This document shows positions 10,679-54,005 of a DNA stretch of 64,000 bases, piece after piece. The position numbers were made by a program, and so were the translations under genes. Positions within the stretch are counted from its first letter, which is position 1, and the number at the start of each line of letters is the position of its first letter. Source of the stretch: Christensenellaceae bacterium. Lineage in GTDB: Bacteria > Bacillota > Clostridia > Christensenellales > Borkfalkiaceae. The stretch covers positions 1,175 through 65,174 of the forward strand of contig JAZSKA010000018.1 in the NCBI GenBank assembly GCA_045534605.1, in the 5' to 3' direction. A model generated the notes under the pieces. That model was not told where the DNA came from, did no database searches, and was given only the letters and a program-made list of their open reading frames with translations.

Positions 10679-10713
10679 CTCGTTTTTTATAATTTTTCAT
10701 CAAATAATTGGGC

Positions 10714-10726: not shown

Positions 10727-12268
10727 TTTGCCTTTTGCGTCGAAAATTTCGTTACAAATTTCACTTGCAAAATCTTGCTCGTGACAAACTAAGATTATCG
10801 CACCGGGATAATTTTGCAATGCCGTTTTTAACGCCTTTTTTGCTAGAACGTCTAAGTGATTTGTCGGCTCGTCAAGAATTAAGATATTCGAAGTCTTTTT
10901 CATTAAAACTGATAGTTTTACCTTGACTTGCTCGCCACCTGAAAGGTTTGAAATAGGCTTCGTTGCTAAATCTCCTTTAATACCGACTTGCGCTAAAGTC
11001 GAGCGCTGTTCTTTTTGGCTTGCGCGCGGATAGTTTTCAGCAAAATATAGCGTAGCGTTCAAACTTGGATTATCAAAATTAAGTTCTTGCTCTAGATACA
11101 AAATTTTAGCCTGCGGATGAAAGGAAAAACTTCCACTTCTTGGCGCAATTTTTCTCATAAGCGTCTTAAGGAGCGTGGTTTTTCCTACGCCGTTAGTTCC
11201 GCGAATCCAAAGTTTTGTCGCACTCGTCATCAAAATATTAATCGGCGGAATTAAAGTGCTATCGTACCCTACTTCTAAGTCTTTTATTTTCAAAAATTCT
11301 TTTGCGTTAGTGTCGATATACGGAAATTCAAAACGACTTTCGTAAACGGTAGTCGGTTTTTGCAAAATATCCATTTTATCAAGCATTTTTTGGCGAGAGT
11401 TTGCCATGCCAGCAGTTGCCGCACGCGCCTTGTTTTTATCAATGTAGTCTTGAAGTTTCTTAATTTCCATTTGCTGACGGCGATAGCTGTCTTCGTACTG
11501 CTTTAATTTAATCTCCCTAAGCTTTAAATACTCGTCGTAATTTCCCGAATACTTATCTATATTTCCATTTTCAATCGCAACGATAACCTTACAGACCTTG
11601 TTTAAAAATTCGGTGTCGTGGGAAATAACCATAAAGGTGTTTTTGTAAGAGTTTAAAAACTTTATAAGCCACTCTACGTGTTCAATATCCAAAAAGTTAG
11701 TCGGTTCGTCAAGAAGCATTATATCTTGCTTTTCAAGTAGAAGTTTAGAAAGCATTAATTTTGCGCGCTCACCACCAGAAAGTGTGCCGATAACCGTGTC
11801 ATAGCCGAACTTATTAACACCTAAACCGTTTGCGACTTTTTTAATTTGCGACTCTAAATCAAAGTAGCCGTCGTTTTCAAGTTCTTCCATAATGCGCGAA
11901 GAACGCTTTATCAATAGGTCTAGTTCATCACCGTCGGCGCTTACCATATCTTCGTAGATTTTTTCAAGTCGTTCGTTCTTTTTGTGAAGATGAGAAAAAG
12001 CGTCAGAGAGATATTCCATAACGGTAAGCGACTTATCAATGGTTGCGTGCTGGTCGAGATAACCCCACCTAACGCCTGAAAGCCAATTAACTTCGCCGTC
12101 GTCCTGAGAGATGCGCTTAGATATAATATTGATAAAAGTAGATTTACCCGCACCGTTTAAGCCAACGATTCCTATATGTTCACCATTATTTACGACTAAA
12201 TTTGCATCAAGGAATAAAAATCTGTCGTCGTAGCGGTGTGTAAGATTTTTAATTTCTAAAATACTCAT
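10724..12268 (-). CDS. ABC-F family ATPase (two NBDs, no TM domain; translation-factor type)
   Basis: 514 aa with two Walker A motifs (GLNGAGKST, GTNGVGKTT), two signature motifs (LSGGERAK, LSGGEQVK) and an inter-domain linker. Confidence 0.88.
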   Translation of the reverse strand: MSILEIKNLTHRYDDRFLFLDANLVVNNGEHIGIVGLNGAGKSTFINIISKRISQDDGEVNWLSGVRWGYLDQHATIDKSLTVMEYLSDAFSHLHKKNERLEKIYEDMVSADGDELDLLIKRSSRIMEELENDGYFDLESQIKKVANGLGVNKFGYDTVIGTLSGGERAKLMLSKLLLEKQDIMLLDEPTNFLDIEHVEWLIKFLNSYKNTFMVISHDTEFLNKVCKVIVAIENGNIDKYSGNYDEYLKLREIKLKQYEDSYRRQQMEIKKLQDYIDKNKARAATAGMANSRQKMLDKMDILQKPTTVYESRFEFPYIDTNAKEFLKIKDLEVGYDSTLIPPINILMTSATKLWIRGTNGVGKTTLLKTLMRKIAPRSGSFSFHPQAKILYLEQELNFDNPSLNATLYFAENYPRASQKEQRSTLAQVGIKGDLATKPISNLSGGEQVKVKLSVLMKKTSNILILDEPTNHLDVLAKKALKTALQNYPGAIILVCHEQDFASEICNEIFDAKGK

Positions 12269-18447: not shown

Positions 18448-18623
18448 AAAAATAGCGGTAATCGCCTTATAGCGCGATTACCGCTTAAATTTTATATCTT
18501 ATTTTTTATAATAATCATTTTTAACACCGCCCAAAAAGGGCAAAAAAAATGCCCTAATCCTTACGAATAAAGTGCGCACACCGTAAGATTAAAGCCAAAA
18601 AAAACCTTTTTTCTTAGTCTGTA
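18446..18623 (-). ncRNA. Candidate small RNA (orphan promoter, stem-loops, terminator)
   Basis: Lies downstream of the minus-strand promoter at 18629-18657. Contains the stem aatccttacg/cgtaagatt (18556-18590), competing GCCC/GGGC/GCCC pairings (18529-18554), and ends at palindrome C1 followed by a T-run. There is no ORF. Confidence 0.25.
18454..18485. repeat. 32-nt palindromic repeat, copy C1 (T-variant loop)
   Basis: agcggtaatcgc-cttatagc-gcgattaccgct, a 12-bp perfect stem. Confidence 0.9.
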
Positions 18624-18811: not shown

Positions 18812-18843
18812 AGCGGTAATCGCCATATAGCGCGATTACCGCT
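18812..18843. repeat. 32-nt palindromic repeat, copy C2 (A-variant loop)
   Basis: agcggtaatcgc-catatagc-gcgattaccgct, identical to C3. Confidence 0.9.
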
Positions 18844-18895: not shown

Positions 18896-20212
18896 TTAAA
18901 ATTTTATCGAATAAATTACATACCCTGCCGAAAATATAACTTCACCCGAAAAGAATCTTTCATTTAGATCATCATAATGTTTTTCGCAAAACTCACAAAC
19001 TTCTTTAGCTATTTGTGATTTTGGATTTTCACGAAGCATGCGCGAGAAATCATTAGGAATAAAACTAAACCACGACTCAAAAAGCGCTATTTTATCTTTT
19101 CTTGACATATTTGAAGTATTTATACCATAACGCTCAAGACAAATTTCTTTAGGCTCCATTTTTCTCACATAAGAGTAAACTTGTCTACCCGTATATCTAT
19201 ACCCGCTATAAATATTATGAATATAAAAAGATTGAAATTTAGAAAACAATCCGTCCTTATCCGGATAAACAAAGACTGCGCCATCGTCAACATCACGCAC
19301 AATCATTACAGCATTTTCATTTAAACAGTTTTGAATTGCCTGTAAAATTTTAAACGGCTTTTTAAAATCCATAATTGCCATGCTCAAATAAACGATATCA
19401 ACGCCGTCTACGCCAACTTTTTCAAGACAACTCATAAGTTGTTCTTCAAAATCTTGAGCCTCAAATTTCACTTGGAAAAAATCTATTTCACCATTTTCTG
19501 TATAATTATGTTTATCTGCATTACCTTGTTTTACAATATCTTCGCTATATGTAAGAGCGATAACTCTAGTTATTTGAGGAAATTTTAAGCGCGCATAAGA
19601 ACCTTTCGTGCTTAAAACGTTCACATCGAGACAAACAACGTCTTCTTTTCCTTCTAACAATTTTTCTACGATAGGTTTTTCATATTTAGCAAGAAGTGCA
19701 TCCTCTGTTCTCAACCTATGCTTTTCAGCCTCGTCCTCATCATAGTAATAACGAACATCATCATGTCGGTCGTTTAGATTGGACTTTCTTTCGTCAATTT
19801 TTACACTGCGAAGCATAGAAATAATTTTTTCGACCGTCGCATCAAAATATTCCCTGCTTGACGGAACCCCATTTAAAAGTGGGAGTACCTGTAATGATAC
19901 AGGTAATTTTTCAGGAAAAGAAAATCCCACCATCATAACTGGTATTATGTTCTTTTTTTGTTTTATTGCGTGCTCAATTTCAAGTCTTAGCCAATCGCTT
20001 TCAGATGCGCATCTATCTAACGAGTTTGGTGGCAAAACTAAAACGAAGTTCTCACTTTCGTCAATTGCTTCGTAAAGTTTTTCGTTAAAAGCACCCGATT
20101 GAAGTTCTTCAAGATCTAAAAAGACAGAAAGCCCCGCTTTATTAAAACACTCATATAGAAGTCGTGCCATCGGAAAACCGCCATCTCGTCTATAACTTAT
20201 AAAAATATCCAT
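18896..20212 (-). CDS. TIR-domain protein fused to a degenerate class-I methyltransferase-like domain
   Basis: The N-terminus DIFISYRRDGG...FVLVLPPNS...SDWLRLEIEHA is a bacterial TIR signature with the conserved Glu. The C-terminal half resembles a Rossmann MTase but has VVCLDVNVLSTKGS in place of a GxGxG loop. Confidence 0.75.
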   Translation of the reverse strand: MDIFISYRRDGGFPMARLLYECFNKAGLSVFLDLEELQSGAFNEKLYEAIDESENFVLVLPPNSLDRCASESDWLRLEIEHAIKQKKNIIPVMMVGFSFPEKLPVSLQVLPLLNGVPSSREYFDATVEKIISMLRSVKIDERKSNLNDRHDDVRYYYDEDEAEKHRLRTEDALLAKYEKPIVEKLLEGKEDVVCLDVNVLSTKGSYARLKFPQITRVIALTYSEDIVKQGNADKHNYTENGEIDFFQVKFEAQDFEEQLMSCLEKVGVDGVDIVYLSMAIMDFKKPFKILQAIQNCLNENAVMIVRDVDDGAVFVYPDKDGLFSKFQSFYIHNIYSGYRYTGRQVYSYVRKMEPKEICLERYGINTSNMSRKDKIALFESWFSFIPNDFSRMLRENPKSQIAKEVCEFCEKHYDDLNERFFSGEVIFSAGYVIYSIKF

Positions 20213-20218
20213 AATTAC

Positions 20219-21325
20219 TTATCCTTTATACACCATTTTATAACACGGAACGTCTTTTACCCCAGGGTATTCATACGCTATTTTAAACCCAAGTCTTTGA
20301 TAAAGCCTAACAGATGAGATATTTGCTACTACACACTCAAGCACGCAGTCCTCGTCTTTTTTGAGTAGATAATCGACTAAAGCACCCGCAATTCCACGCT
20401 TGCGATAATTTGAATCCACCGTTACGTTGGCGATATAAAATCCGCCATCGTCTTCTCCCATTTTTTCGTAATACGCTTCAAAAATTTCATGCGTTCGCGA
20501 GTCGCATTTAACCCCCGAAAGACTAAAAGCCGAACGAATATCATCCTCTTTTTCTGTAAAAGGCAACCTCTTTGAAACCATTGCCCCCGCTATAAATCCT
20601 TCGCTAGTTACGGCAACAGTAATATTTTCCTTGTTGTAAAGCGTAGGCAAATTTATCATTTCGCGAATTACTGAAATCCCATCTTCTATATTATCAAACC
20701 AGTACGGATAAATATAAGGATCGGTTAAATAAATTAATTTGGCTACTTGATTTATATCATCTCCGTCTCTAAACTCGCGTATTACGATATCTTTTGACTT
20801 GTTAGGTTGTATTCCTATTTCTCTAGTCATATATTCGTAAAACGAACGATATTCTTCTTTTTCTAACGCTCTCGGAAAAGACAGAATTTTTAATTCAAGA
20901 TCTTCGTCTCCTAGATGATACTTTGCCTGAATATGGTAATACGGATTCATTATAAAACCGTTTCTTTTATAAAAACCGTATCTTCGCTCAGTCATTTCAT
21001 CAATAGGAGGTTCAATTTCTAGCAAAATAATTTTGTTCTTTTTCTTTAACAAATCTAATGCTTTAGCGCCAAACCCCTTACCTCTTACGATTGGCATAGT
21101 TGCAAAATGCTCTAAAAAAACAAAGTCTTTCGTTTCCCAATAAAGCATTATACCAATAAATACACCATCTTTTAGTATAAGGTCAAAATGATATTCCGCC
21201 TTACCCATCACTCTCACTTGTTCTAAATTATCTCGTCTTTCTTCAACTGGAAAAGCCGATTCATATAACTTAAATGCTTGATTAAATAATTGCTCTTCTT
21301 TGCTTGAAAGTCTTTTTAGTTCCAC
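20219..21325 (-). CDS. Tandem GNAT N-acetyltransferase (two GNAT domains)
   Basis: 368 aa with a GTG start after AAGGTGA. There are two acetyl-CoA binding motifs, VRGKGFGAKAL and YRKRGIAGAL. A 6-nt gap separates it from the TIR gene. Confidence 0.8.
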   Translation of the reverse strand: MELKRLSSKEEQLFNQAFKLYESAFPVEERRDNLEQVRVMGKAEYHFDLILKDGVFIGIMLYWETKDFVFLEHFATMPIVRGKGFGAKALDLLKKKNKIILLEIEPPIDEMTERRYGFYKRNGFIMNPYYHIQAKYHLGDEDLELKILSFPRALEKEEYRSFYEYMTREIGIQPNKSKDIVIREFRDGDDINQVAKLIYLTDPYIYPYWFDNIEDGISVIREMINLPTLYNKENITVAVTSEGFIAGAMVSKRLPFTEKEDDIRSAFSLSGVKCDSRTHEIFEAYYEKMGEDDGGFYIANVTVDSNYRKRGIAGALVDYLLKKDEDCVLECVVANISSVRLYQRLGFKIAYEYPGVKDVPCYKMVYKG

Positions 21326-21402: not shown

Positions 21403-21434
21403 AGCGGTAATCGCCATATAGCGCGATTACCGCT
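21403..21434. repeat. 32-nt palindromic repeat, copy C3 (A-variant loop)
   Basis: Identical to C2. Confidence 0.9.
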
Positions 21435-21450: not shown

Positions 21451-21933
21451 TTAGTCGTCGTTTTCGTCTTTGTGGTGGTGATGTCCGCAATTGCAACCTT
21501 CTTCTTTATCGCAGTCGCAATCGTCGTCACAGTCGCAATCGCCATCGCAGTCGCAATCGCCATCGCAGTCGCAGTCTCCATCGCAGTCGCAGTCGCAACT
21601 AGAATGGCAACCGCAGTCACATTCTTCTTCATAGTCGTCTTCTTCGTCCATTTCAGCAACGAACGCTTGGAAAACTTCGTCAAGTAATGCTTCGTCTTGA
21701 ACAGGAGCGAGTTGTTCGTCGCCGTCGTCGCCAACAATTTCGAAAATTACGACTTCTTCGTCGTTAAGACCGTCTATTTCTTGAGCAGGTTGGAAAAATG
21801 CGAACCATCTTTTGTTGTGTTCGATAGTTCCGATATGGTAAAATTTAAACACGTCACCGTTTTCGTTTTTAAGGTCTACAACGGCAATGTCTTCTTCGTT
21901 TTCGTTAATAACTTCTTTGTAATTGTCTGACAT
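21451..21933 (-). CDS. DUF1292 (YrzB-like) protein with Cys/Asp-repeat and His-run C-terminal tail
   Basis: The N-terminal roughly 100 aa match the DUF1292 pattern (VDLKNENGDVFKFYHIGTIEH..RWFAFFQP...VVIFEI). The tail is ECDCGCHSSCDCDCDGDCDCDGDCDCDGDCDCDDDCDCDKEEGCNCGHHHH. Confidence 0.8.
   Translation of the reverse strand: MSDNYKEVINENEEDIAVVDLKNENGDVFKFYHIGTIEHNKRWFAFFQPAQEIDGLNDEEVVIFEIVGDDGDEQLAPVQDEALLDEVFQAFVAEMDEEDDYEEECDCGCHSSCDCDCDGDCDCDGDCDCDGDCDCDDDCDCDKEEGCNCGHHHHKDENDD
21511..21597 (-). repeat. In-frame 18-bp tandem repeat encoding (CDCDGD)n
   Basis: The gcagtcgcaatcgccatc unit is repeated about 4-5 times with minor variants. Confidence 0.8.
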
Positions 21934-22402: not shown

Positions 22403-23821
22403 TTAAATATCAATTAAAAAGCCTTGTAATCTTTCTGGCTTAAAACTATACGGATTCAAGCGCAAAAAGTCGAATGCGTTGGTGGTTAAAAGTTCCGCCC
22501 CGCCTTCGTTTAGAAAACTTCTTGAAGCAATACTGCTGTTTAGATAAAAGACAATTCTTGACGGGATATTTGCCTTTATTACGCCGTTAATAAAAATTGA
22601 TTCGAACCGAGCGGTAGATATAATTAAATGTATTCCGCTTGCGCGCGATTTTTGCAAAAGCGTGCAGAGTTTTTTCTCGAAATCTTTTTTCATCATAACT
22701 TCAAGCGCAGAAAACTCGTCGATAGCATAGACAATGTATTTTAACGGTTTTTCACTATTAATCGCGTTATAGCCCGATATATTACGAACTTTACTTTCAT
22801 TAAACAGCGAATATCTTCTTTCCATTTCGTCAATCAAGTCACCTAAAACTTCCATCGTTTTTTCGGCTGAAGTGATAACGCCTTCACCTTCGAGATATTC
22901 AGATTTATCAAAAGACTTAAACCCACCGAATATACTCGAACAGTAAAACTTTACGATATTATGCGAGTATCTTAGCGAAATGCTTTTAAGTATTCCTTCC
23001 ATAAAACGCAAAAGTTCGCTTCCGATAACGCCACTTATAAGTAAGTGCGGTTCACTCGTTAAATCAGAATAGACGACGTCGCCGTCTACGTTTATTCCAA
23101 CGGGATAAACCAAATTTCCGCTTGGAGCAACTAAATTTTCAAGCGAATTCAAACTTGGCAAAGTCTTTTCGCCGTTTTCTACTTCAAAATTAATTATTCC
23201 CCTATCGAAAGTTACCCTTACGCTAAATACGTTTAAAGCAATTTTGACATCGCTAATAAGTTTTAAAAAACTTGTAGGTTTTCCGTCGCAAACGAACGAA
23301 TATTTCGTATAGCACCCCGTCTTTACTGGGGTTAAAATTTCAGTAACAGTCGTAACCTTTTCGATAACGTTTAAAATTTTAATTTGCTCACCAGTCAGTT
23401 TGCCTTTTGGTGGGAATATTTCGTTTATTCTATAAAATAAAGTTTCTAAATGCGTAAATACGTCGTCGCCAACCGCTTCAATCCATTGTGAAAGTTGCAA
23501 AAAATAATTAAGTTTTATAGGTAAATTAGGCGTAATTTTAAACGGAATAATAGTTTTTTCTGCGCTGAACGCTAAGCTCATCTCTGCCCTTACGTGCACA
23601 GATTTATCGGCGTTTTCAGAAAAAATCAACACCACAAGCGCGCAATTTTTTATCGCGTCTTCAAGTTCGTCAGGATAACTTTCACCACCTAAAACGTCGC
23701 GCGACGAAATAAAGCAGTCGTAACCGCGTTTTTCCAAAAATTCGACGACAGTTTCAGCAGTTGACAAATCTTTTGATGAAAATGATATAAATATATCTTT
23801 GTTTGCGTTTATTTTATCCAT
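22403..23821 (-). CDS. TIR-domain protein fused to an FtsK/SpoIIIE-like motor domain with degenerate Walker A
   Basis: The N-terminus is DIFISFSSKD...LVVLIFSENADKSVHVRAEMSLA. The C-terminal region parallels the FtsK core: PHLLISGVIGSELLRF (in place of GxxGSGKS), Walker B YIVYAIDEFSAL, RASGIHLIISTARFE and IPSRIVFYLNSSIASRSFL. Confidence 0.75.
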   Translation of the reverse strand: MDKINANKDIFISFSSKDLSTAETVVEFLEKRGYDCFISSRDVLGGESYPDELEDAIKNCALVVLIFSENADKSVHVRAEMSLAFSAEKTIIPFKITPNLPIKLNYFLQLSQWIEAVGDDVFTHLETLFYRINEIFPPKGKLTGEQIKILNVIEKVTTVTEILTPVKTGCYTKYSFVCDGKPTSFLKLISDVKIALNVFSVRVTFDRGIINFEVENGEKTLPSLNSLENLVAPSGNLVYPVGINVDGDVVYSDLTSEPHLLISGVIGSELLRFMEGILKSISLRYSHNIVKFYCSSIFGGFKSFDKSEYLEGEGVITSAEKTMEVLGDLIDEMERRYSLFNESKVRNISGYNAINSEKPLKYIVYAIDEFSALEVMMKKDFEKKLCTLLQKSRASGIHLIISTARFESIFINGVIKANIPSRIVFYLNSSIASRSFLNEGGAELLTTNAFDFLRLNPYSFKPERLQGFLIDI

Positions 23822-26544: not shown

Positions 26545-27594
26545 ATGAGTTCGATAGTTTTAACTGGCGGTGGAACGGCTGGCCACGCAATACCAAACCT
26601 TGCAATTTTACCTTATATAAACGATAGTTTCGACAATATTTGCTATATTGGTCGCGAAATTGGAATTGAACGCAATTTATTAGAAAAATACACCGATTAC
26701 TTTTCAATTCCGACAATCAAGTTTAAGCGAAAAATCTGCGCTGATAATTTATTAATTCCTTTTAAACTTTATAAAGCGGTAAAAAAGAGTAAAGAAATTT
26801 TGAAAAAAATAAAACCTAGCGTTATATTTTCAAAAGGCGGATACGTTTCGCTTCCCGTGTGTATAGCAGGAAAACAATTAAAAATTCCAGTTATTTGTCA
26901 CGAGTCTGACTTAACGCTTGGTCTAGCAAATAAATTAACCGCAAAATTTTCAGATAAAGTGTTAACGTCTTATTTTGAAACGGCGCAAAATTTACAAAAC
27001 GGTATATACACGGGCGCACCAATTCGCGAAGGTCTTTTTTACGCAGACAAAAATTTAGCGTTAAGAAAATTTGGATTTAGCGGTCGAAAAAAAGTAATTT
27101 TAATATTCGGCGGTTCAATCGGAAGTCGGTCAATTAACGATTTAACGCGAAAAGTTTTAGACAGACTTTTAGAAAAATATGCAGTCCTTCACATATGTGG
27201 AAATGGTAATAAGTTCACTTATAACACGGAAAACGAGTATTTTCAGGCAGAATTTATCGACGATATGGCAAGTTGTTATCGCGCATGCGACGTTGCCGTT
27301 TCGCGCGGTGGGGCTAACGCACTTTTCGAACTTATGTCGCTTAAAATTCCGTCGCTTATTATACCCTTAGCAAAATCTTCTAGAAACGACCAAGTTGAAA
27401 ACGCCGAATATTTTAAAAAGCGCGGTATGTGTAACGTTGCGTTCGAAAAAAACTTAAACGCAAGTTTTTATTTTCAAGAAATTGAAAAACTTGTAAAAAA
27501 TCAAGATAAAATTAAAACTCGCATTATCGACAATAAAATTCCAATCGGAAATGAAAAAATTTCTGAGATTTTACTCTCTTATGCAAAAAAATGA
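26545..27594 (+). CDS. murG: Undecaprenyldiphospho-muramoylpentapeptide beta-N-acetylglucosaminyltransferase
   Basis: LTGGGTAGHAIPNLA and a C-terminal GT28 domain. The TGA stop lies inside the first linker of repeat element A1. Confidence 0.9.
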   Translation: MSSIVLTGGGTAGHAIPNLAILPYINDSFDNICYIGREIGIERNLLEKYTDYFSIPTIKFKRKICADNLLIPFKLYKAVKKSKEILKKIKPSVIFSKGGYVSLPVCIAGKQLKIPVICHESDLTLGLANKLTAKFSDKVLTSYFETAQNLQNGIYTGAPIREGLFYADKNLALRKFGFSGRKKVILIFGGSIGSRSINDLTRKVLDRLLEKYAVLHICGNGNKFTYNTENEYFQAEFIDDMASCYRACDVAVSRGGANALFELMSLKIPSLIIPLAKSSRNDQVENAEYFKKRGMCNVAFEKNLNASFYFQEIEKLVKNQDKIKTRIIDNKIPIGNEKISEILLSYAKK

Positions 27595-27854
27595 TTTGCA
27601 ACCTTTGGTTGCATGATTTGCTAACAATGTTAGCGTGATTTGCAATCCTTGATTGCATGATTTGAAAAAACAAGTTTTTTCATTGTGGTCGCGAACGCTA
27701 CGCGTTCCGTTATTAAATATGTTATGTTGGCAATTTTTTTAAAAAATCTGCTCGACTTCAATGCAAATCATTTGATTTGCAAATCATGAAAGTTCACTTT
27801 CAAATCATGAGCGACGACAGTTGCTCAAATCATGAAGGCTTGCCTTCAAATCAT
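27591..27854 (+). repeat. Hairpin-array element, family A, copy 1
   Basis: The left arm is 4 x [ATGATTT or GTGATTT + G..C-closed hairpin] at 22-bp period (27591, 27613, 27635, 27657). The unique core is 27682-27762. The right arm is the palindrome gcaaatca/tgatttgc followed by 3 x [hairpin + AAATCAT], ending at 27854. Confidence 0.9.
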
Positions 27855-27878
27855 CTAAAAATATTTTTTAGAAAATAT

Positions 27879-27908
27879 TTGACACACATCTGTCATATTT
27901 GATATTAT
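27879..27908 (+). promoter_or_regulatory. Promoter of the WYL regulator gene
   Basis: TTGACA-18 nt-TATTAT, preceded by TGA (extended -10). Confidence 0.45.
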
Positions 27909-27940
27909 ATAATTGGAAAAACTTAGTTTAGGAGATAATT

Positions 27941-28870
27941 ATGAAATATCAAATACTTATTGAAATTTTATTCTTGCTACTGTCAAGAAAGTCCGTTTCG
28001 GCAAAATATATTGCAGAGCGTTTCGACATTTCTCTACGAACTGCGTATAGATATTTACAAGAAATTGAACTTTGCAATATCCCCGTTATCGCAGAACGCG
28101 GTGCAAGCGGTGGTTTTTCTATTGCAGATACGTTTAAACTACCTGCAAGTTTCCTAACCGAAAGCGAATTTTTGAAATTATCATCTGTAATTAACGCAGT
28201 TGGCGAACAGATTGGTGATGCTAGCGAACTTGAACATATAAAAAACAAGTTATATTGCGCATCAAAAACCGAAAAAGAAAGCAATTTATCTTCATCTCAA
28301 CTTATAATTGACGGTAGCGACTGGTCGGTTGGTAGCAGTTATAAAAACAAATTAAGCGTAATAACACGCGCAATTGACAAGCGGGAAATACTTGAAATTT
28401 CATACCACGACAGAGAAGGCGAAGTTTCGACGCGTATTATCGAACCGCACGCGCTTGCCCTAAAACAAGGTTTATGGTATGCGTATGCATACTGCAGACT
28501 TCGCGAAGATTTTAGACTTTTTAAGATTGGTAGAATTGAGTATGCTAAAGTTTGCGGTAAGTTCGAAATGCGCGAATTTGATGCAAATAATCTTCCTTTT
28601 AACGAGTGGTATAACTCAATAAAGCGCGTTGAGTTTGAATTTGAAGTTGAAAAGTCTGTAAAAAGTGAAGTTGAAGAATGGCTTGGAATTGAAAACGTAC
28701 ATGAGTTAAAATCAGGTAAAATTATTGCAAGCGCGCGACTTCCTTACGATAAAGGACTAGTTTATCAGATTATGAGATTTGGTTCTAAAATTAAAGTGGT
28801 TAAACCTGACTACGTTAAGAAAGAAATTTTAAATTCTGCAAAAGAATTAATAAAATTATACCAAAAATAA
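27941..28870 (+). CDS. HTH-WYL domain transcriptional regulator (YafY family)
   Basis: N-terminal wHTH SAKYIAERFDISLRTAYRYLQEI. WYL region ISYHDREGEVSTRIIEPHALALKQGLWYAYAYCRLREDFRLFKIGRI. Confidence 0.85.
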   Translation: MKYQILIEILFLLLSRKSVSAKYIAERFDISLRTAYRYLQEIELCNIPVIAERGASGGFSIADTFKLPASFLTESEFLKLSSVINAVGEQIGDASELEHIKNKLYCASKTEKESNLSSSQLIIDGSDWSVGSSYKNKLSVITRAIDKREILEISYHDREGEVSTRIIEPHALALKQGLWYAYAYCRLREDFRLFKIGRIEYAKVCGKFEMREFDANNLPFNEWYNSIKRVEFEFEVEKSVKSEVEEWLGIENVHELKSGKIIASARLPYDKGLVYQIMRFGSKIKVVKPDYVKKEILNSAKELIKLYQK

Positions 28871-47403: not shown

Positions 47404-47588
47404 TGTGCCACACTACAACTATATTTGCCTGACGGCAAGTTATATTGCTTTCGCAGTTATATTTTTTATAAAAAGTGTTATTTCCCTTTCGGGAAGTTGG
47501 CAAATATAATATAACTTTAACTTTGTTAAAATATAACTTTTAGATTTACTCTAAAAATATAACTGTTTGCTATGCAAACAATATCACT
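47401..47588 (+). repeat. Hairpin-array element, family B, copy 2
   Basis: It starts at the yfbR-like stop codon. The left arm has linkers CTATATT/GTTATATT/GTTATATT/GTGTTATTT. The right arm has AATATAAC x3 plus AATATCAC. Some hairpins are shared with B1 (tgcctgacggca, tgtttgctatgcaaaca). Confidence 0.85.
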
Positions 47589-47621: not shown

Positions 47622-47653
47622 AGCGGTAATCGCCTTATAGCGCGATTACCGCT
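47622..47653. repeat. 32-nt palindromic repeat, copy C4 (T-variant loop)
   Basis: Identical to C1. Confidence 0.9.
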
Positions 47654-52193: not shown

Positions 52194-52826
52194 CTATTCA
52201 CTCTCCTTTTTATCTTTAATTTCTTCATTTTCAGCGTTAATCGCGCTATTTGCAGGTTTTTCTTTACTTTCTTTACGCATTTTTGGATAATACGCGCAAA
52301 GCCCTAAAACCCCACCGATAAGTATAAAGTAGATAGTCGAAACGTTTTTGCTGAATATATCAAGTAGCAATAAAACGGTTGCAGAAAGTATAATTAACAA
52401 ATAACTAAGCCACGATTTTTTTACGTTTTTGAAAAGCTTAATAGATGCAGAAATTATCAAAACGACAACCGCACACTGAACGCCCTTGAAGGCTTTAGTT
52501 ACAATTTCGTATTCTAAAAATTTAGGAAGCAATACTGATATTAAATATATAATTAGAAAAGACGGCAAAGATACTGCTATGCTTGAAACAATCGAGCCTA
52601 AAACACCGCCTACCCTAAACCCGATATAAGTTGCGCTGTTTATTGCAACTGGACCGGGCGTAGATTCTGCGATTGCAACTATATCAGAAAACTCGTCACT
52701 AGAAACGTAGTTACGCTTTTCGACAAGTTCGGTAGAAATCATTGAAATCATAGCGTAACCACCGCCAAAGGTAAAAAGTCCTATTTTAAAAAAGTCAAAA
52801 AATAGCCGTAAATATTTTTTAAGCAT
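52194..52826 (-). CDS. chrA: Chromate transporter family protein (short-chain CHR, first half)
   Basis: 210 aa with FTFGGGYAMI and AESTPGPVAIN. Confidence 0.85.
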   Translation of the reverse strand: MLKKYLRLFFDFFKIGLFTFGGGYAMISMISTELVEKRNYVSSDEFSDIVAIAESTPGPVAINSATYIGFRVGGVLGSIVSSIAVSLPSFLIIYLISVLLPKFLEYEIVTKAFKGVQCAVVVLIISASIKLFKNVKKSWLSYLLIILSATVLLLLDIFSKNVSTIYFILIGGVLGLCAYYPKMRKESKEKPANSAINAENEEIKDKKESE

Positions 52827-52881
52827 TATTTCATCTCCAACCTTGGTATACTTAGTATATCATAATTTACGGCTAAATGCA

Positions 52882-53163
52882 ATGATTTGAAGATTTTATC
52901 TTCATGATTTGAGCGACTGTCGTCGCTCGTGATTTGAAAGCCTTGCTTTCATGATTTGCAATTTGAAAACAAATTGCATTATGGTCGGGCAGATTTTTCT
53001 TTGAAAAATTGCCAACTTAACATTTTATATGTTATTCACGGAACGCAAAAGCGTTCGCGACCACAATGAAAAAACTTGTTTTTTCAAATCATGCAACTAA
53101 AAGTTGCAAATCATGCTAACTGTCAAGTTAGCAAATCATGCAAGCGCAAAGCTTGCAAATCAT
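52882..53163 (-). repeat. Hairpin-array element, family A, copy 2 (inverted relative to A1)
   Basis: The architecture matches A1. There are 4 x [ATGATTT/GTGATTT + hairpin] at 52882-52977, a homologous core containing gaacgc-aaaa-gcgttc, and 4 x [hairpin + AAATCAT] at 53068-53163. The last base overlaps the TGA stop of the spoIVFB-like gene. Confidence 0.9.
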
Positions 53164-54005
53164 CATCTTTTTATTTCATTTTTTAGCGTAGAGTATAAAT
53201 TTGCAGACGATAAAAGTTTTTGAGTTTTTACAATATCTAGCCGAGTTTTAATTTTGCCGTTATCGTCAATAACTACTATTTCGCAATCTTTCGAGCCAAC
53301 CACTCTATAAACGTCTAAAATTTTTGAATTCTCGTTTATTGCCACCGTTTCCACCCTTACCCCCGTATCAAACCGTTTTAAAGAAAAGTCGTTGTAAATG
53401 CGGATATAACTGTTTGTATTTGACTTTGTAAGCACGCCGAAAATCATAAACAGAGAGAAAAATAAAATACTTAAGTTAAATGCGGTAAAACACGAATAAA
53501 CGAACAGCCCAAACAAGCAAATCCCTAAGAATAAGCCGATTATCCGACAAATTTTTAAAGCAGTCGACCTTTTCAAATACAAAGATAGCGTAGCAAGCAG
53601 CACCCTTCCCCCGTCAAGCGGATAGCAAGGTAAAAGGTTGATAAAAGCAATCGCTAGATTAGTTGAAACGATAACGTCGGTATAGGCGTATATATCTGGT
53701 ATAAGCCACCAAAGCGCGGTAAAAAATATAACGATAAGTAAGTTTGTGACTGGACCTGCGAGTGCTATAAAAATTTCGTCTTTATACCTAAGACTTACCA
53801 TATCCCCGCTTATTACCGCGCCGTAAGGCATAAGAAGAATTTTGTCGAGTTTATAGCCGTAACGCTCGGAAACCAAAAAGTGTCCGAACTCGTGAAGAAG
53901 TGCGGATATGAACATTATTAAAAAAGAAAATACTTTGCCGATTAAAGCAAAGTATATTCCAAAGAGAAAGAATAACGGATGGATAATCGGTTTTAGCTTT
54001 GCCAT
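53163..54005 (-). CDS. spoIVFB: M50 site-2 protease, SpoIVFB-like
   Basis: LLHEFGHFLV, NLLPCYPLDGGR and a C-terminal CBS-like region. Preceded by a SpoIVFA-like gene. Confidence 0.75.
   Translation of the reverse strand: MAKLKPIIHPLFFLFGIYFALIGKVFSFLIMFISALLHEFGHFLVSERYGYKLDKILLMPYGAVISGDMVSLRYKDEIFIALAGPVTNLLIVIFFTALWWLIPDIYAYTDVIVSTNLAIAFINLLPCYPLDGGRVLLATLSLYLKRSTALKICRIIGLFLGICLFGLFVYSCFTAFNLSILFFSLFMIFGVLTKSNTNSYIRIYNDFSLKRFDTGVRVETVAINENSKILDVYRVVGSKDCEIVVIDDNGKIKTRLDIVKTQKLLSSANLYSTLKNEIKR

Follow-up and report, generated by a model that had tools for sequence, protein, structure and literature searches.

What are the two arrays of short hairpins that stand directly behind a murG-like gene and an M50 protease gene in a Christensenellaceae bacterium, and how did they come to lie there? 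The window, by which we mean the whole 64,000-nucleotide stretch analysed (contig JAZSKA010000018.1 of assembly GCA_045534605.1), contains two copies of one intergenic element without an open reading frame (ORF): A1 at 27592-27853 on the plus strand and A2, inverted, at 52883-53162, between the start of chrA and the end of the M50 gene. The copies have a common anatomy, differ by compensatory changes in their stems and are polymorphic as insertions. With moderate confidence, we regard A2, like A1, as an ORF-less member of an inserted, foldable family akin to intervening sequences (IVS) and repetitive extragenic palindromic (REP) elements, carried on host transcripts and targeting or building on TGATTTG-like sites at gene ends. 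The elements are probably selfish.

A2 is 280 bases long, and each copy consists of mirrored arrays of four short hairpins each around a core of ~85 nt. The left arm has four units in which the heptamer TGATTTG precedes a hairpin of 14-18 nt, the right arm is its mirror, with four units of a hairpin followed by CAAATCA, and between them a 10-bp helix closes a core with a GAACGC/GCGTTC hairpin and the palindrome GGCAATTTTT...AAAAATCTGC. On the plus strand, TGATTTG lies at 27592, 27614, 27636 and 27658 in A1 and at 52883, 52905, 52930 and 52952 in A2; CAAATCA lies at 27780, 27801, 27826 and 27847 in A1 and at 53085, 53107, 53132 and 53156 in A2. As a preliminary description had proposed, A2 is an inverted second copy homologous through the core: it is the reverse complement of A1, has the same GAACGC/GCGTTC hairpin and shows 86% column identity when A1 is aligned with reverse-complemented A2. 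Both elements sit between co-directional genes. The pattern TGATTTG-N12-19-TGATTTG has 12 matches in the window against 0 in 100 shuffles, and ATGATTTG has 16 against 2.6 expected, 15 of the 16 inside A1 and A2. A covariance model built from 17 arms, all from loci outside the window (model R1, distinct from hairpin R1), finds exactly the four window arms in the 64 kb, at 66.1, 61.1, 53.0 and 51.7 bits (E 1e-12 to 2e-9), with the next match at 15.9; neither this model nor a k-mer chain scan found further heptamer-hairpin arrays in the window. The features of the two copies are as follows.

53163..53165, minus strand: TGA stop of the Peptidase_M50 gene (53163-54005, minus), directly adjoining the first heptamer
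53068..53162, minus strand: A2 arm adjoining the M50 gene, homologue of the A1 left arm; CAAATCA on the plus strand, TGATTTG on the minus strand; hairpins L1 53140-53156, L2 53115-53132, L3 53093-53107, L4 53068-53085
53085-53163, minus strand: model R1 match in this arm, 61.1 bits, E 1.4e-11
52978..53067, minus strand: A2 core; 10-bp closing helix of 53058-53067 with 52978-52987
53041-53056: A2 core hairpin GAACGC/GCGTTC
52988-53013: A2 core palindrome GGCAnATTTTT/AAAAATTGCC
52883..52978, minus strand: A2 arm adjoining chrA, homologue of the A1 right arm; TGATTTG on the plus strand; hairpins R4 52889-52903, R3 52911-52928, R2 52936-52950, R1 52957-52978
52882-52958, plus strand: model R1 match in this arm, 53.0 bits, E 1e-9
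27592..27681, plus strand: A1 left arm, whose first TGA, 27592-27594, is the murG stop codon; hairpins L1 27598-27612, L2 27620-27634, L3 27642-27656, L4 27664-27681
27591-27664, plus strand: model R1 match in this arm, 66.1 bits, E 1e-12
27682..27762, plus strand: A1 core; closing helix of 27682-27691 with 27753-27762
27693-27707: A1 core hairpin GAACGC
27729-27751: A1 core palindrome GGCAATTTTT..AAAAATcTGC
27762..27853, plus strand: A1 right arm; hairpins R1 27762-27781, R2 27788-27801, R3 27809-27826, R4 27834-27847
27780-27854, minus strand: model R1 match in this arm, 51.7 bits
27855-27871, plus strand: A1 terminal hairpin CTAAAAA-tat-TTTTTAG, within the feature 27855..27881
27877-81, plus strand: second ATTTG copy at A1 (first copy 27594-98)
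27879..27908, plus strand: promoter-like TTGACA-18-TATTAT (TG-extended) of the downstream WYL-regulator gene, outside the element and kept at filled and empty sites

The stems of the two copies differ in pairs. Seventeen of 134 stem bases (67 pairs in 10 helices) differ between A1 and A2, and these make up eight double changes and one one-sided change (G-T to G-C), with no broken pair; when 17 substitutions were placed at random, none of 200,000 placements preserved all 67 pairs. The linkers differ at 1 of 49 positions, the stems at the 17 of 134 and the loops and unpaired core at 39 of 97, so the statement in the preliminary description that the heptamers are unchanged very nearly holds. All three stem differences that it listed are right: gaaGGC/GCCttc versus gaaGAT/ATCttc (two pairs), gaaagT/Actttc versus gaaagC/Gctttc (one pair) and gcaaCC/GGttgc versus gcaaGC/GCttgc, the last being a single C-G to G-C flip, not two pairs. 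It had not mentioned further double changes, two each in hairpins L3 (gcaaTC/GAttgc versus gcaaCT/AGttgc) and R1. When the orthologous copies of relatives are added, giving five distinct sequences, 94.5% of cells are paired and 14 pairs show double-sided changes, which none of 500 shuffles matches; slid controls are 29-46% paired. Hairpin-forming potential rather than stem sequence is preserved. The further claim that such covariation means selection on structure holds in part: the covariation is real, and strong by both shuffles and random placement, but it does not in itself show an RNA, and palindrome-templated correction may be a mutational route to paired changes.

Relatives show that both sites can be empty. 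(Loci from other genomes are designated by L and three digits; the percentages for L119, L130 and L144-L147 are protein identities.) The orthologous murG and M50 3' ends that lack the element have short spacers of 51-66 bp, which supports insertion, and gene order is conserved at both sites in these distant relatives. Between M50 and chrA lie 66 bp in L130 (72%), compared with 336 bp in the window; between murG and the WYL gene, L144/145 (63%) have 64 bp and L146/147 (57%) have 51 bp, compared with 346 bp in the window. Because both sites are empty there, we conclude that the elements inserted at the stop codon of the upstream gene. Some 55-85 bp of native spacer remain downstream of each element, including the WYL promoter at 27879-27908, which places the insert at that end of the spacer where the stop codon lies. 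In L144, the empty site at murG reads gcaaaaTAAaaTGATTTGACA, with the insertion point at TAAaaTGATTTGACA, and the sole TGATTTG of this 5.3-kb locus falls exactly there. At the filled A1 site, ATTTG brackets the insert, and deletion between its two copies restores the L144 sequence to within one A, so that the inserted segment is ~27599-27881. The empty-site relative for A2, L130, has cgCAAAATCAat at the corresponding position.

The same arm overlaps or touches the TGA of the upstream gene at both sites, as the first coordinates had indicated. The stop codon of the murG-like ORF (26545-27594; Glyco_transf_28 N and C domains) is the TGA of the first A1 heptamer, and the TGA of the M50 ORF directly adjoins the heptamer at 53156-53162. 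In the relative L119, whose MurG is 95% identical, a TAA stop precedes an identical element by three bases; in the window this TAA has changed to AAA, giving readthrough to the heptamer TGA. Because L119 stops three bases earlier, the murG overlap is secondary. The idea that the element inserts at or near TGA is thus upheld in part, by the empty sites and by the heptamer at the empty murG point, but not by that overlap. In L130, which has no element, the M50 protein is four codons longer. In L174, a host methyltransferase gene and a gene of the PF05635 family, to which we return below, both terminate at a first-linker TGA, and several PF05635 ORFs terminate in the second linker. TGATTTG arms supply or adjoin stop codons throughout the family. 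The preliminary description also held that one arm, in one orientation, faces the upstream gene; this is true of both window copies, but two copies would agree by chance 1 time in 2, and a sister subfamily lies in both orientations.

By their positions, the linkers of the window arms are 21-25 nt apart, and the UGAs of the four linkers of each arm cover all three frames. Boxes so arranged could also be read as an iteron-like array bound as duplex DNA, in which a regulator, partition or replication protein, perhaps the downstream WYL regulator, occupies the 7-bp boxes. Each arm does offer four direct boxes, the arms are mutually inverted, the A1 spacing of 22, 22 and 22 bp is near two helical turns, and the gene that follows A1 encodes an HTH-WYL regulator. 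Elsewhere, however, the spacing is not phase-locked, ranging over 21-25 bp among the window arms and over 15-26 bp in relatives; palindromic spacers are always present, though duplex binding needs none; A2 has no adjacent regulator; and the empty sites retain the WYL gene and its promoter. We consider such a binding array very unlikely.

Among closer relatives, the elements themselves vary, a turnover that favours the reading as inserted elements. An 89% relative (L120-L125, ~11048-11200, orthologous to 27595-27860) has only the right half-element at the murG site; all of its linkers have changed to ATATCGA. In their core and first hairpin these loci resemble A2 more than A1, which suggests that copies exchanged sequence or that the site received a second insertion. 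In L126 (8209-8236, corresponding to window 53093-53107), hairpin L3 GCAACTTTTAGTTGC has been swapped for a longer, unrelated palindrome GCACTCTGCGAGCAGATTGC, with the GCA...TGC ends and the linkers kept and flanks 94% identical in nucleotide sequence; the A2 core and chrA-side arm differ between the window and L126 at about one position, counted by eye. Changes of this kind could belong to a decaying relic without present activity or function, whose hairpins correct themselves by template switching or mismatch correction and whose paired changes are mutational. Quasipalindrome correction is an established mutational mechanism, the stems are perfect Watson-Crick palindromes on both strands as templated correction predicts, the L3 swap in L126 shows whole hairpins replaced by new palindromes between close strains, and the half-element of L120 would be decay by deletion. 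Self-correction cannot explain why the non-palindromic linkers are the most conserved part and are common to distant clostridial genomes and to the PF05635 cassettes described below, and the core sequence conserved among A1, A2 and L120, together with the conserved number and order of arms, speaks against decay. A relic is in our judgement unlikely.

In the predicted fold, the linkers of opposite arms pair and the hairpins protrude, giving a ladder of four-way junctions in both the minimum-free-energy and the centroid structure; RNAalifold returns the same full ladder. The complementary termini thereby form a stem around the insert, branched rather than continuous. Folding exceeds that of shuffled sequences for RNA on both strands (z = -5.5 and -4.9) and for DNA (z = -6.1). 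Sixty well-formed family hairpins contain 350 pairs, of which 342 (98%) are Watson-Crick; G-T pairs number 1 in the TGATTTG reading and 5 in the opposite reading, without significant strand bias. This near-absence of wobble sets the arrays apart from typical structured RNAs and suits palindromes that function on either strand. No promoter was found inside A1 or A2, and no intrinsic terminator on their sense strand, the sole match being antisense at 27613-27597. The earlier suggestion that the element is transcribed as the 3' untranslated region (UTR) of the upstream gene is plausible, with no terminator between gene and element and with co-directional flanking genes.

How widely does this design occur? 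A scan for three spaced TGATTTG heptamers, with one genome per species, returned at least 118 stretches. Among the matches listed, most are plain tandem repeats and at least 10 are true heptamer-hairpin arrays, all from uncultured Clostridia (Acutalibacteraceae and unclassified rumen or gut metagenome-assembled genomes, MAGs), with several arrays per 8-kb locus. The closest relatives of the window loci are likewise 'Clostridia bacterium' MAGs and metagenome assemblies of gut or rumen type. Over all retrieved loci, strong matches to model R1 are confined to those of Clostridia; plain tandem TGATTTG repeats score up to 46.9 bits with it. The building block is the arm, in which an invariant 7-base linker, xTGATTT, strings together three to five short hairpins that pair perfectly but are free in sequence, and the window elements are members of this family. 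Solo arms are present in L095 and L120, so inter-arm pairing is not the sole reason for the invariant linker, and a trans-acting reader of the linker is likely. A heptamer-array scan of viral contigs gave plain tandem repeats only, and on that result we reject a phage origin. A metagenome scan by the core pattern gave 4 chance matches and no family member, and an exact look-up of the window M50 protein returned no record.

Other linkers in the same genomes (GTGATAT, GCGATAT and TCGATAT) lead to Gut-1, an RNA class reported only from human-gut metagenomes (Weinberg et al. 2010, PMC2864571), whose consensus has three hairpins with GUGAAAU between them. The Rfam model of Gut-1 (RF01706) matches a GTGATAT arm in L043 (7482-7560) at 62.6 bits, above the gathering threshold of 50 bits. 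In the original sequences (alignment file of Weinberg et al.), an inverted arm with AUAUCAC linkers follows the modelled one, giving the layout '++++ core −−−−' of the window elements, with plus for TGATTTG-type and minus for CAAATCA-type units. The window arms fit the Gut-1 type, with four tandem covarying hairpins and AUGAUUU/GUGAUUU linkers of the form RUGAWWU. The Gut-1 model itself has no match in 27500-27950 or 52800-53250 at E <= 10, and none window-wide at gathering; no other Rfam family reaches gathering in the whole window either, and around A1 and A2 only chance-level matches, such as cow-rumen-4 and TD-1, appear at E <= 10. The window element is a linker and core variant of a kind known only as the orphan Gut-1.

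Four ORF-less elements of Acutalibacteraceae MAGs have the opposite layout, '−−−− core ++++' (L017 5757-5872; L105 2299-2383, reverse complement; L095 1210-1276; L021 4852-4935). They have the same arm hairpins and share a non-coding core of ~90 nt, ..CTTTCCTCGGTG..CTCAATG..CATTGAGGTATTAAAAA, where other copies carry PF05635. This core has no Rfam match and could be a small RNA (sRNA) cargo.

Kinship with Gut-1 raises the possibility that A1 and A2 are functional structured non-coding RNAs: either Gut-1-like sRNAs or cis-acting 3'-UTR or intercistronic RNAs, whose hairpins, set between single-stranded AUGAUUU linkers, would act by binding or titrating a protein, or by governing how stable the upstream mRNA is or how its translation terminates. 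Rfam classes the related Gut-1 arm as a likely RNA, covariation is strong, and both window copies immediately follow a gene, in like orientation and without an intervening terminator. Weak hints of a sense-strand RNA come from the core-closing helix and hairpin R3, which use G-U pairs on the strand co-directional with the upstream gene (RNAalifold), from loops that are rich in pyrimidines when read in the linker direction (T 98, A 45) and from the unusual conservation of A1 and the A2 core between relatives. Liang, Rudd and Deutscher reportedly found in 2015 that REP hairpins within ~15 nt of a stop codon modulate translation in E. coli. Against an RNA function, wobble occurs in only 6 of 350 pairs with no significant strand bias, the mirror-image arms let both strands fold equally well, and the element has neither promoter nor terminator of its own. 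In addition, sister elements without an ORF stand either way round with respect to the flanking genes and their transcription, and relatives keep the same gene pairs around empty sites, so the host operons do not need the element. We find such a function doubtful; compared with a classical sRNA, a selfish, structured insertion of the IVS/REP kind is the likelier reading.

The arms are also linked to a protein family. In L107, two arms enclose an ORF of 121 amino acids that matches PF05635 (23S_rRNA_IVP, E 2.6e-27) and PDB entry 2RLD (1e-25); it has 4,292 homologues at E <= 1e-20, many on very short contigs, perhaps because the repeats break assemblies. Arms bracket PF05635 genes at five independent sites (UDG|ABC-3, ABC-3|DRTGG, CbiQ|pseudouridine synthase, DHODB|NMN transporter and TRAM-methyltransferase|PNPOx), at all of which the ORF is co-directional with the host genes and a CAAATCA-type arm lies ~20 nt upstream of its start codon; at four of the five, a TGATTTG-type arm begins at or just before its stop. 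L174 and L169 have a full window-type '++++ core −−−−' module between the stop codon of the host gene, which it adjoins, and the PF05635 gene immediately downstream. In L174, two 75-nt TGATTTG/TGAATTG arms, 96% identical and in direct orientation (1010-1085 and 1560-1635), flank the core, the inverted arm and the PF05635 gene; each starts with the TGA stop of the preceding ORF, and the second follows the PF05635 stop. The layout resembles Campbell-type integration or a cassette array of alternating ORFs and sites. We found no literature that links PF05635 or Gut-1 to hairpin arrays, and there appears to be no earlier description of the mirrored layout, of the polymorphic insertion or of the association with PF05635.

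A PF05635 gene between such arms repeats the architecture of ORF-bearing 23S rRNA IVS, which RNase III excises and in which the same protein family is encoded inside inverted termini (PMC4990558). In the rRNA IVS of Coxiella burnetii, the S23p ORF is preceded by tandem heptamers GACAGAT in strain-variable number (PMC4990558), an echo of the heptamer-bearing arm upstream of PF05635 genes.

A more ambitious proposal, which we advance as a tentative possibility, is that the arrays are cis-acting ends or recombination sites of unrecognised mobile cassettes. The sole gene of such a cassette would encode an S23p/Avd-like four-helix-bundle PF05635 protein that reads hairpin-heptamer units; the cassettes would home to TGATTTG-like heptamers at gene ends, and A1, A2 and Gut-1 would be non-autonomous derivatives. 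If true, the orphan Gut-1 and the PF05635 'rRNA IVS protein' would gain a common biological context.

Several observations weigh against the reading of A1 and A2 as inserted, IVS/REP-like elements. The window contains ten lone TGATTTG/CAAATCA heptamers outside the elements (7-11 expected, hence no depletion), so the heptamer alone is insufficient as a target, and it holds only two copies of the element. A flanking repeat is evident only at A1; none is seen at A2, whose empty-site relative (72% protein identity) is too diverged for junctions. No PF05635 gene was found in the window or in loci L119-L131 (tblastn with the L107 protein), and the window arm order '++++ core −−−−' is opposite to the '−−−− ORF ++++' of the PF05635 cassettes. 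No transposase, recombinase or RAYT-like gene (RAYT, REP-associated tyrosine transposase) was seen in the 64-kb window, though a single-copy gene might well lie outside so short a stretch. With linker helices of only 7 bp between junctions, it is uncertain whether RNase III would recognise them in the classical way. Finally, A1 is 100% identical over 298 nt between genomes with ~95% identical flanks, the longest perfect run in 21 kb; together with the A2 core, this conservation hints that the element is more than 'junk' and has a function at the host level or one tied to its sequence. The same comparison contains further perfect runs, the longest of 249 nt, and we therefore take the conservation of A1 as a hint only.

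How might elements of this inserted family work? Insertion took place at the very end of the upstream gene, in the case of A1 into or beside a pre-existing TGATTTG, and left the promoter or ribosome-binding-site spacer of the downstream gene intact. Having no promoter or terminator of its own, the element would be carried on the host transcript as a 3'-UTR or intercistronic insert, and translation that entered it would halt at once, each TGATTTG linker presenting a UGA. As a single strand of RNA or DNA, it could pair its arm linkers into a rod of stacked four-way junctions closed by the 10-bp core helix; this fold presumably forms in vivo, where a trans factor would read the linker. The fold may render the insert harmless, for example through processing or hairpin-capped ends, and the element may spread by heptamer-directed recombination or single-strand transposition.

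More broadly, Gut-1 has been in Rfam since 2010, and the finding that its model covers one arm of a mirrored element weakens the sRNA reading. PF05635 proteins are the ORF products of rRNA intervening sequences and relatives of Avd, the accessory protein of diversity-generating retroelements (DGRs). The evidence joins Gut-1, PF05635 and the window repeats in one inserted, foldable family of uncultured gut and rumen Clostridia. In this family the heptamer may serve as target or recognition site, with the four-helix-bundle protein as its possible reader, and the fold may be what makes an operon insert harmless. As these elements adjoin or supply stop codons and lengthen spacers five-fold, they matter for gene calling and operon prediction in MAGs.

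The window has other repeats. A second, REP-like family, unrelated to the heptamer arrays, consists of a 32-nt palindrome, AGCGGTAATCGC-CTTATAG-CGCGATTACCGCT, at 18454-18485, 18812-18843, 21403-21434 and 47622-47653, with related copies near 10702, 16696, 38637, 42998 and 44508 and a related motif AATCGACTTATAGCGCGAT. Inverted copies of it (18812 and 21403) enclose a TIR_2 + methyltransferase gene and a GNAT acetyltransferase gene (18896-21325, minus), and a TIR + FtsK/SpoIIIE gene (22403-23821, minus) adjoins this pair. The TIR_2 and GNAT genes are apparently absent from the 95% relative L119, which has an HTH_3 gene there (by Pfam gene table, not direct alignment); the region has the look of a variable islet of defence type. 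At 21490-21627, six tandem repeats of 18 nt (ATCGCAGTCGCAATCGCC) fall within a DUF1292 ORF (21451-21933, minus), and the motif AATATAACT occurs three times, 22-26 nt apart, in the intergenic stretch 47502-47560.

Several known systems invite comparison. Like integron attC sites, the elements conserve structure over sequence, are bounded by inverted 7-nt motifs and begin at, or overlap, the stop codon of the ORF before them, and L174 has a repetition of ORF and arm; attC sites, too, are thought to act as folded single strands. An attC site is one bulged stem, whereas the window element has many hairpins and ordinary housekeeping genes at its flanks. We rejected attC identity: by reading, the RYYYAAC/GTTRRRY core sites are absent from A1 and A2, the end motifs are TGATTTG/CAAATCA, and no integrase or attI was seen. 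Miniature inverted-repeat transposable elements (MITEs), such as pneumococcal BOX and Neisseria Correia elements, are likewise small, ORF-less, intergenic, co-transcribed and variably present, with inverted ends and, in BOX, a repeated internal module. In contrast to MITEs, the window elements have ends without similarity to transposase-bearing insertion sequences, arms of free-sequence hairpins on a fixed linker and inconsistent flanking repeats, with ATTTG at A1 and no equivalent seen at A2. Tn7/Mu-like ends, with several sites per end and a 5-bp duplication, were also rejected, as the insert in the ATTTG register is not TG...CA-ended and a duplex site needs no palindromic spacers, as were type III toxin-antitoxin RNA repeats, the units being non-identical and no toxin gene lying downstream.

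REP elements and their composites (bacterial interspersed mosaic elements, BIMEs, and REP doublets forming hairpins, REPINs) are extragenic palindromic units that join a short constant single-strand motif to a stem with compensatory variation, form direct and inverted mosaics and typically lie just behind genes, co-transcribed with them. The likeness is an analogy of design only: the constant motif of the window elements is xTGATTT, with GTAG absent, the host belongs to the Clostridia, no RAYT gene was seen in the 64 kb, a regular 4+4 array surrounds a core, and some relatives carry PF05635 cargo. The 23S rRNA IVS (S23p/PF05635; Coxiella, PMC4990558) differ in location, the window elements lying between protein-coding genes rather than in helix 25 or 45, with no rRNA in the window. 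They also differ in their ends, a continuous ~28-bp stem in the IVS as opposed to branched hairpin arrays with 7-bp rungs, and the window copies are ORF-less with the opposite arm order. Both, however, are inserts on host transcripts with inverted ends that zip together, both have ORF-less versions, and relatives of the window elements carry the same protein family between their arms, co-directional with host genes. Gut-1, of which Rfam models one arm only, as an sRNA, differs in its linker (GUGAAAU/GUGAUAU instead of AUGAUUU), and its model does not reach A1 or A2, which have four hairpins per arm and a core of ~85 nt with hairpins of its own. Yet Gut-1 and the window elements alike have tandem short covarying hairpins on a conserved 7-nt RUGAWWU linker and occur in uncultured gut-type Clostridia, and the original Gut-1 sequences share the '++++ core −−−−' layout of A1 and A2.

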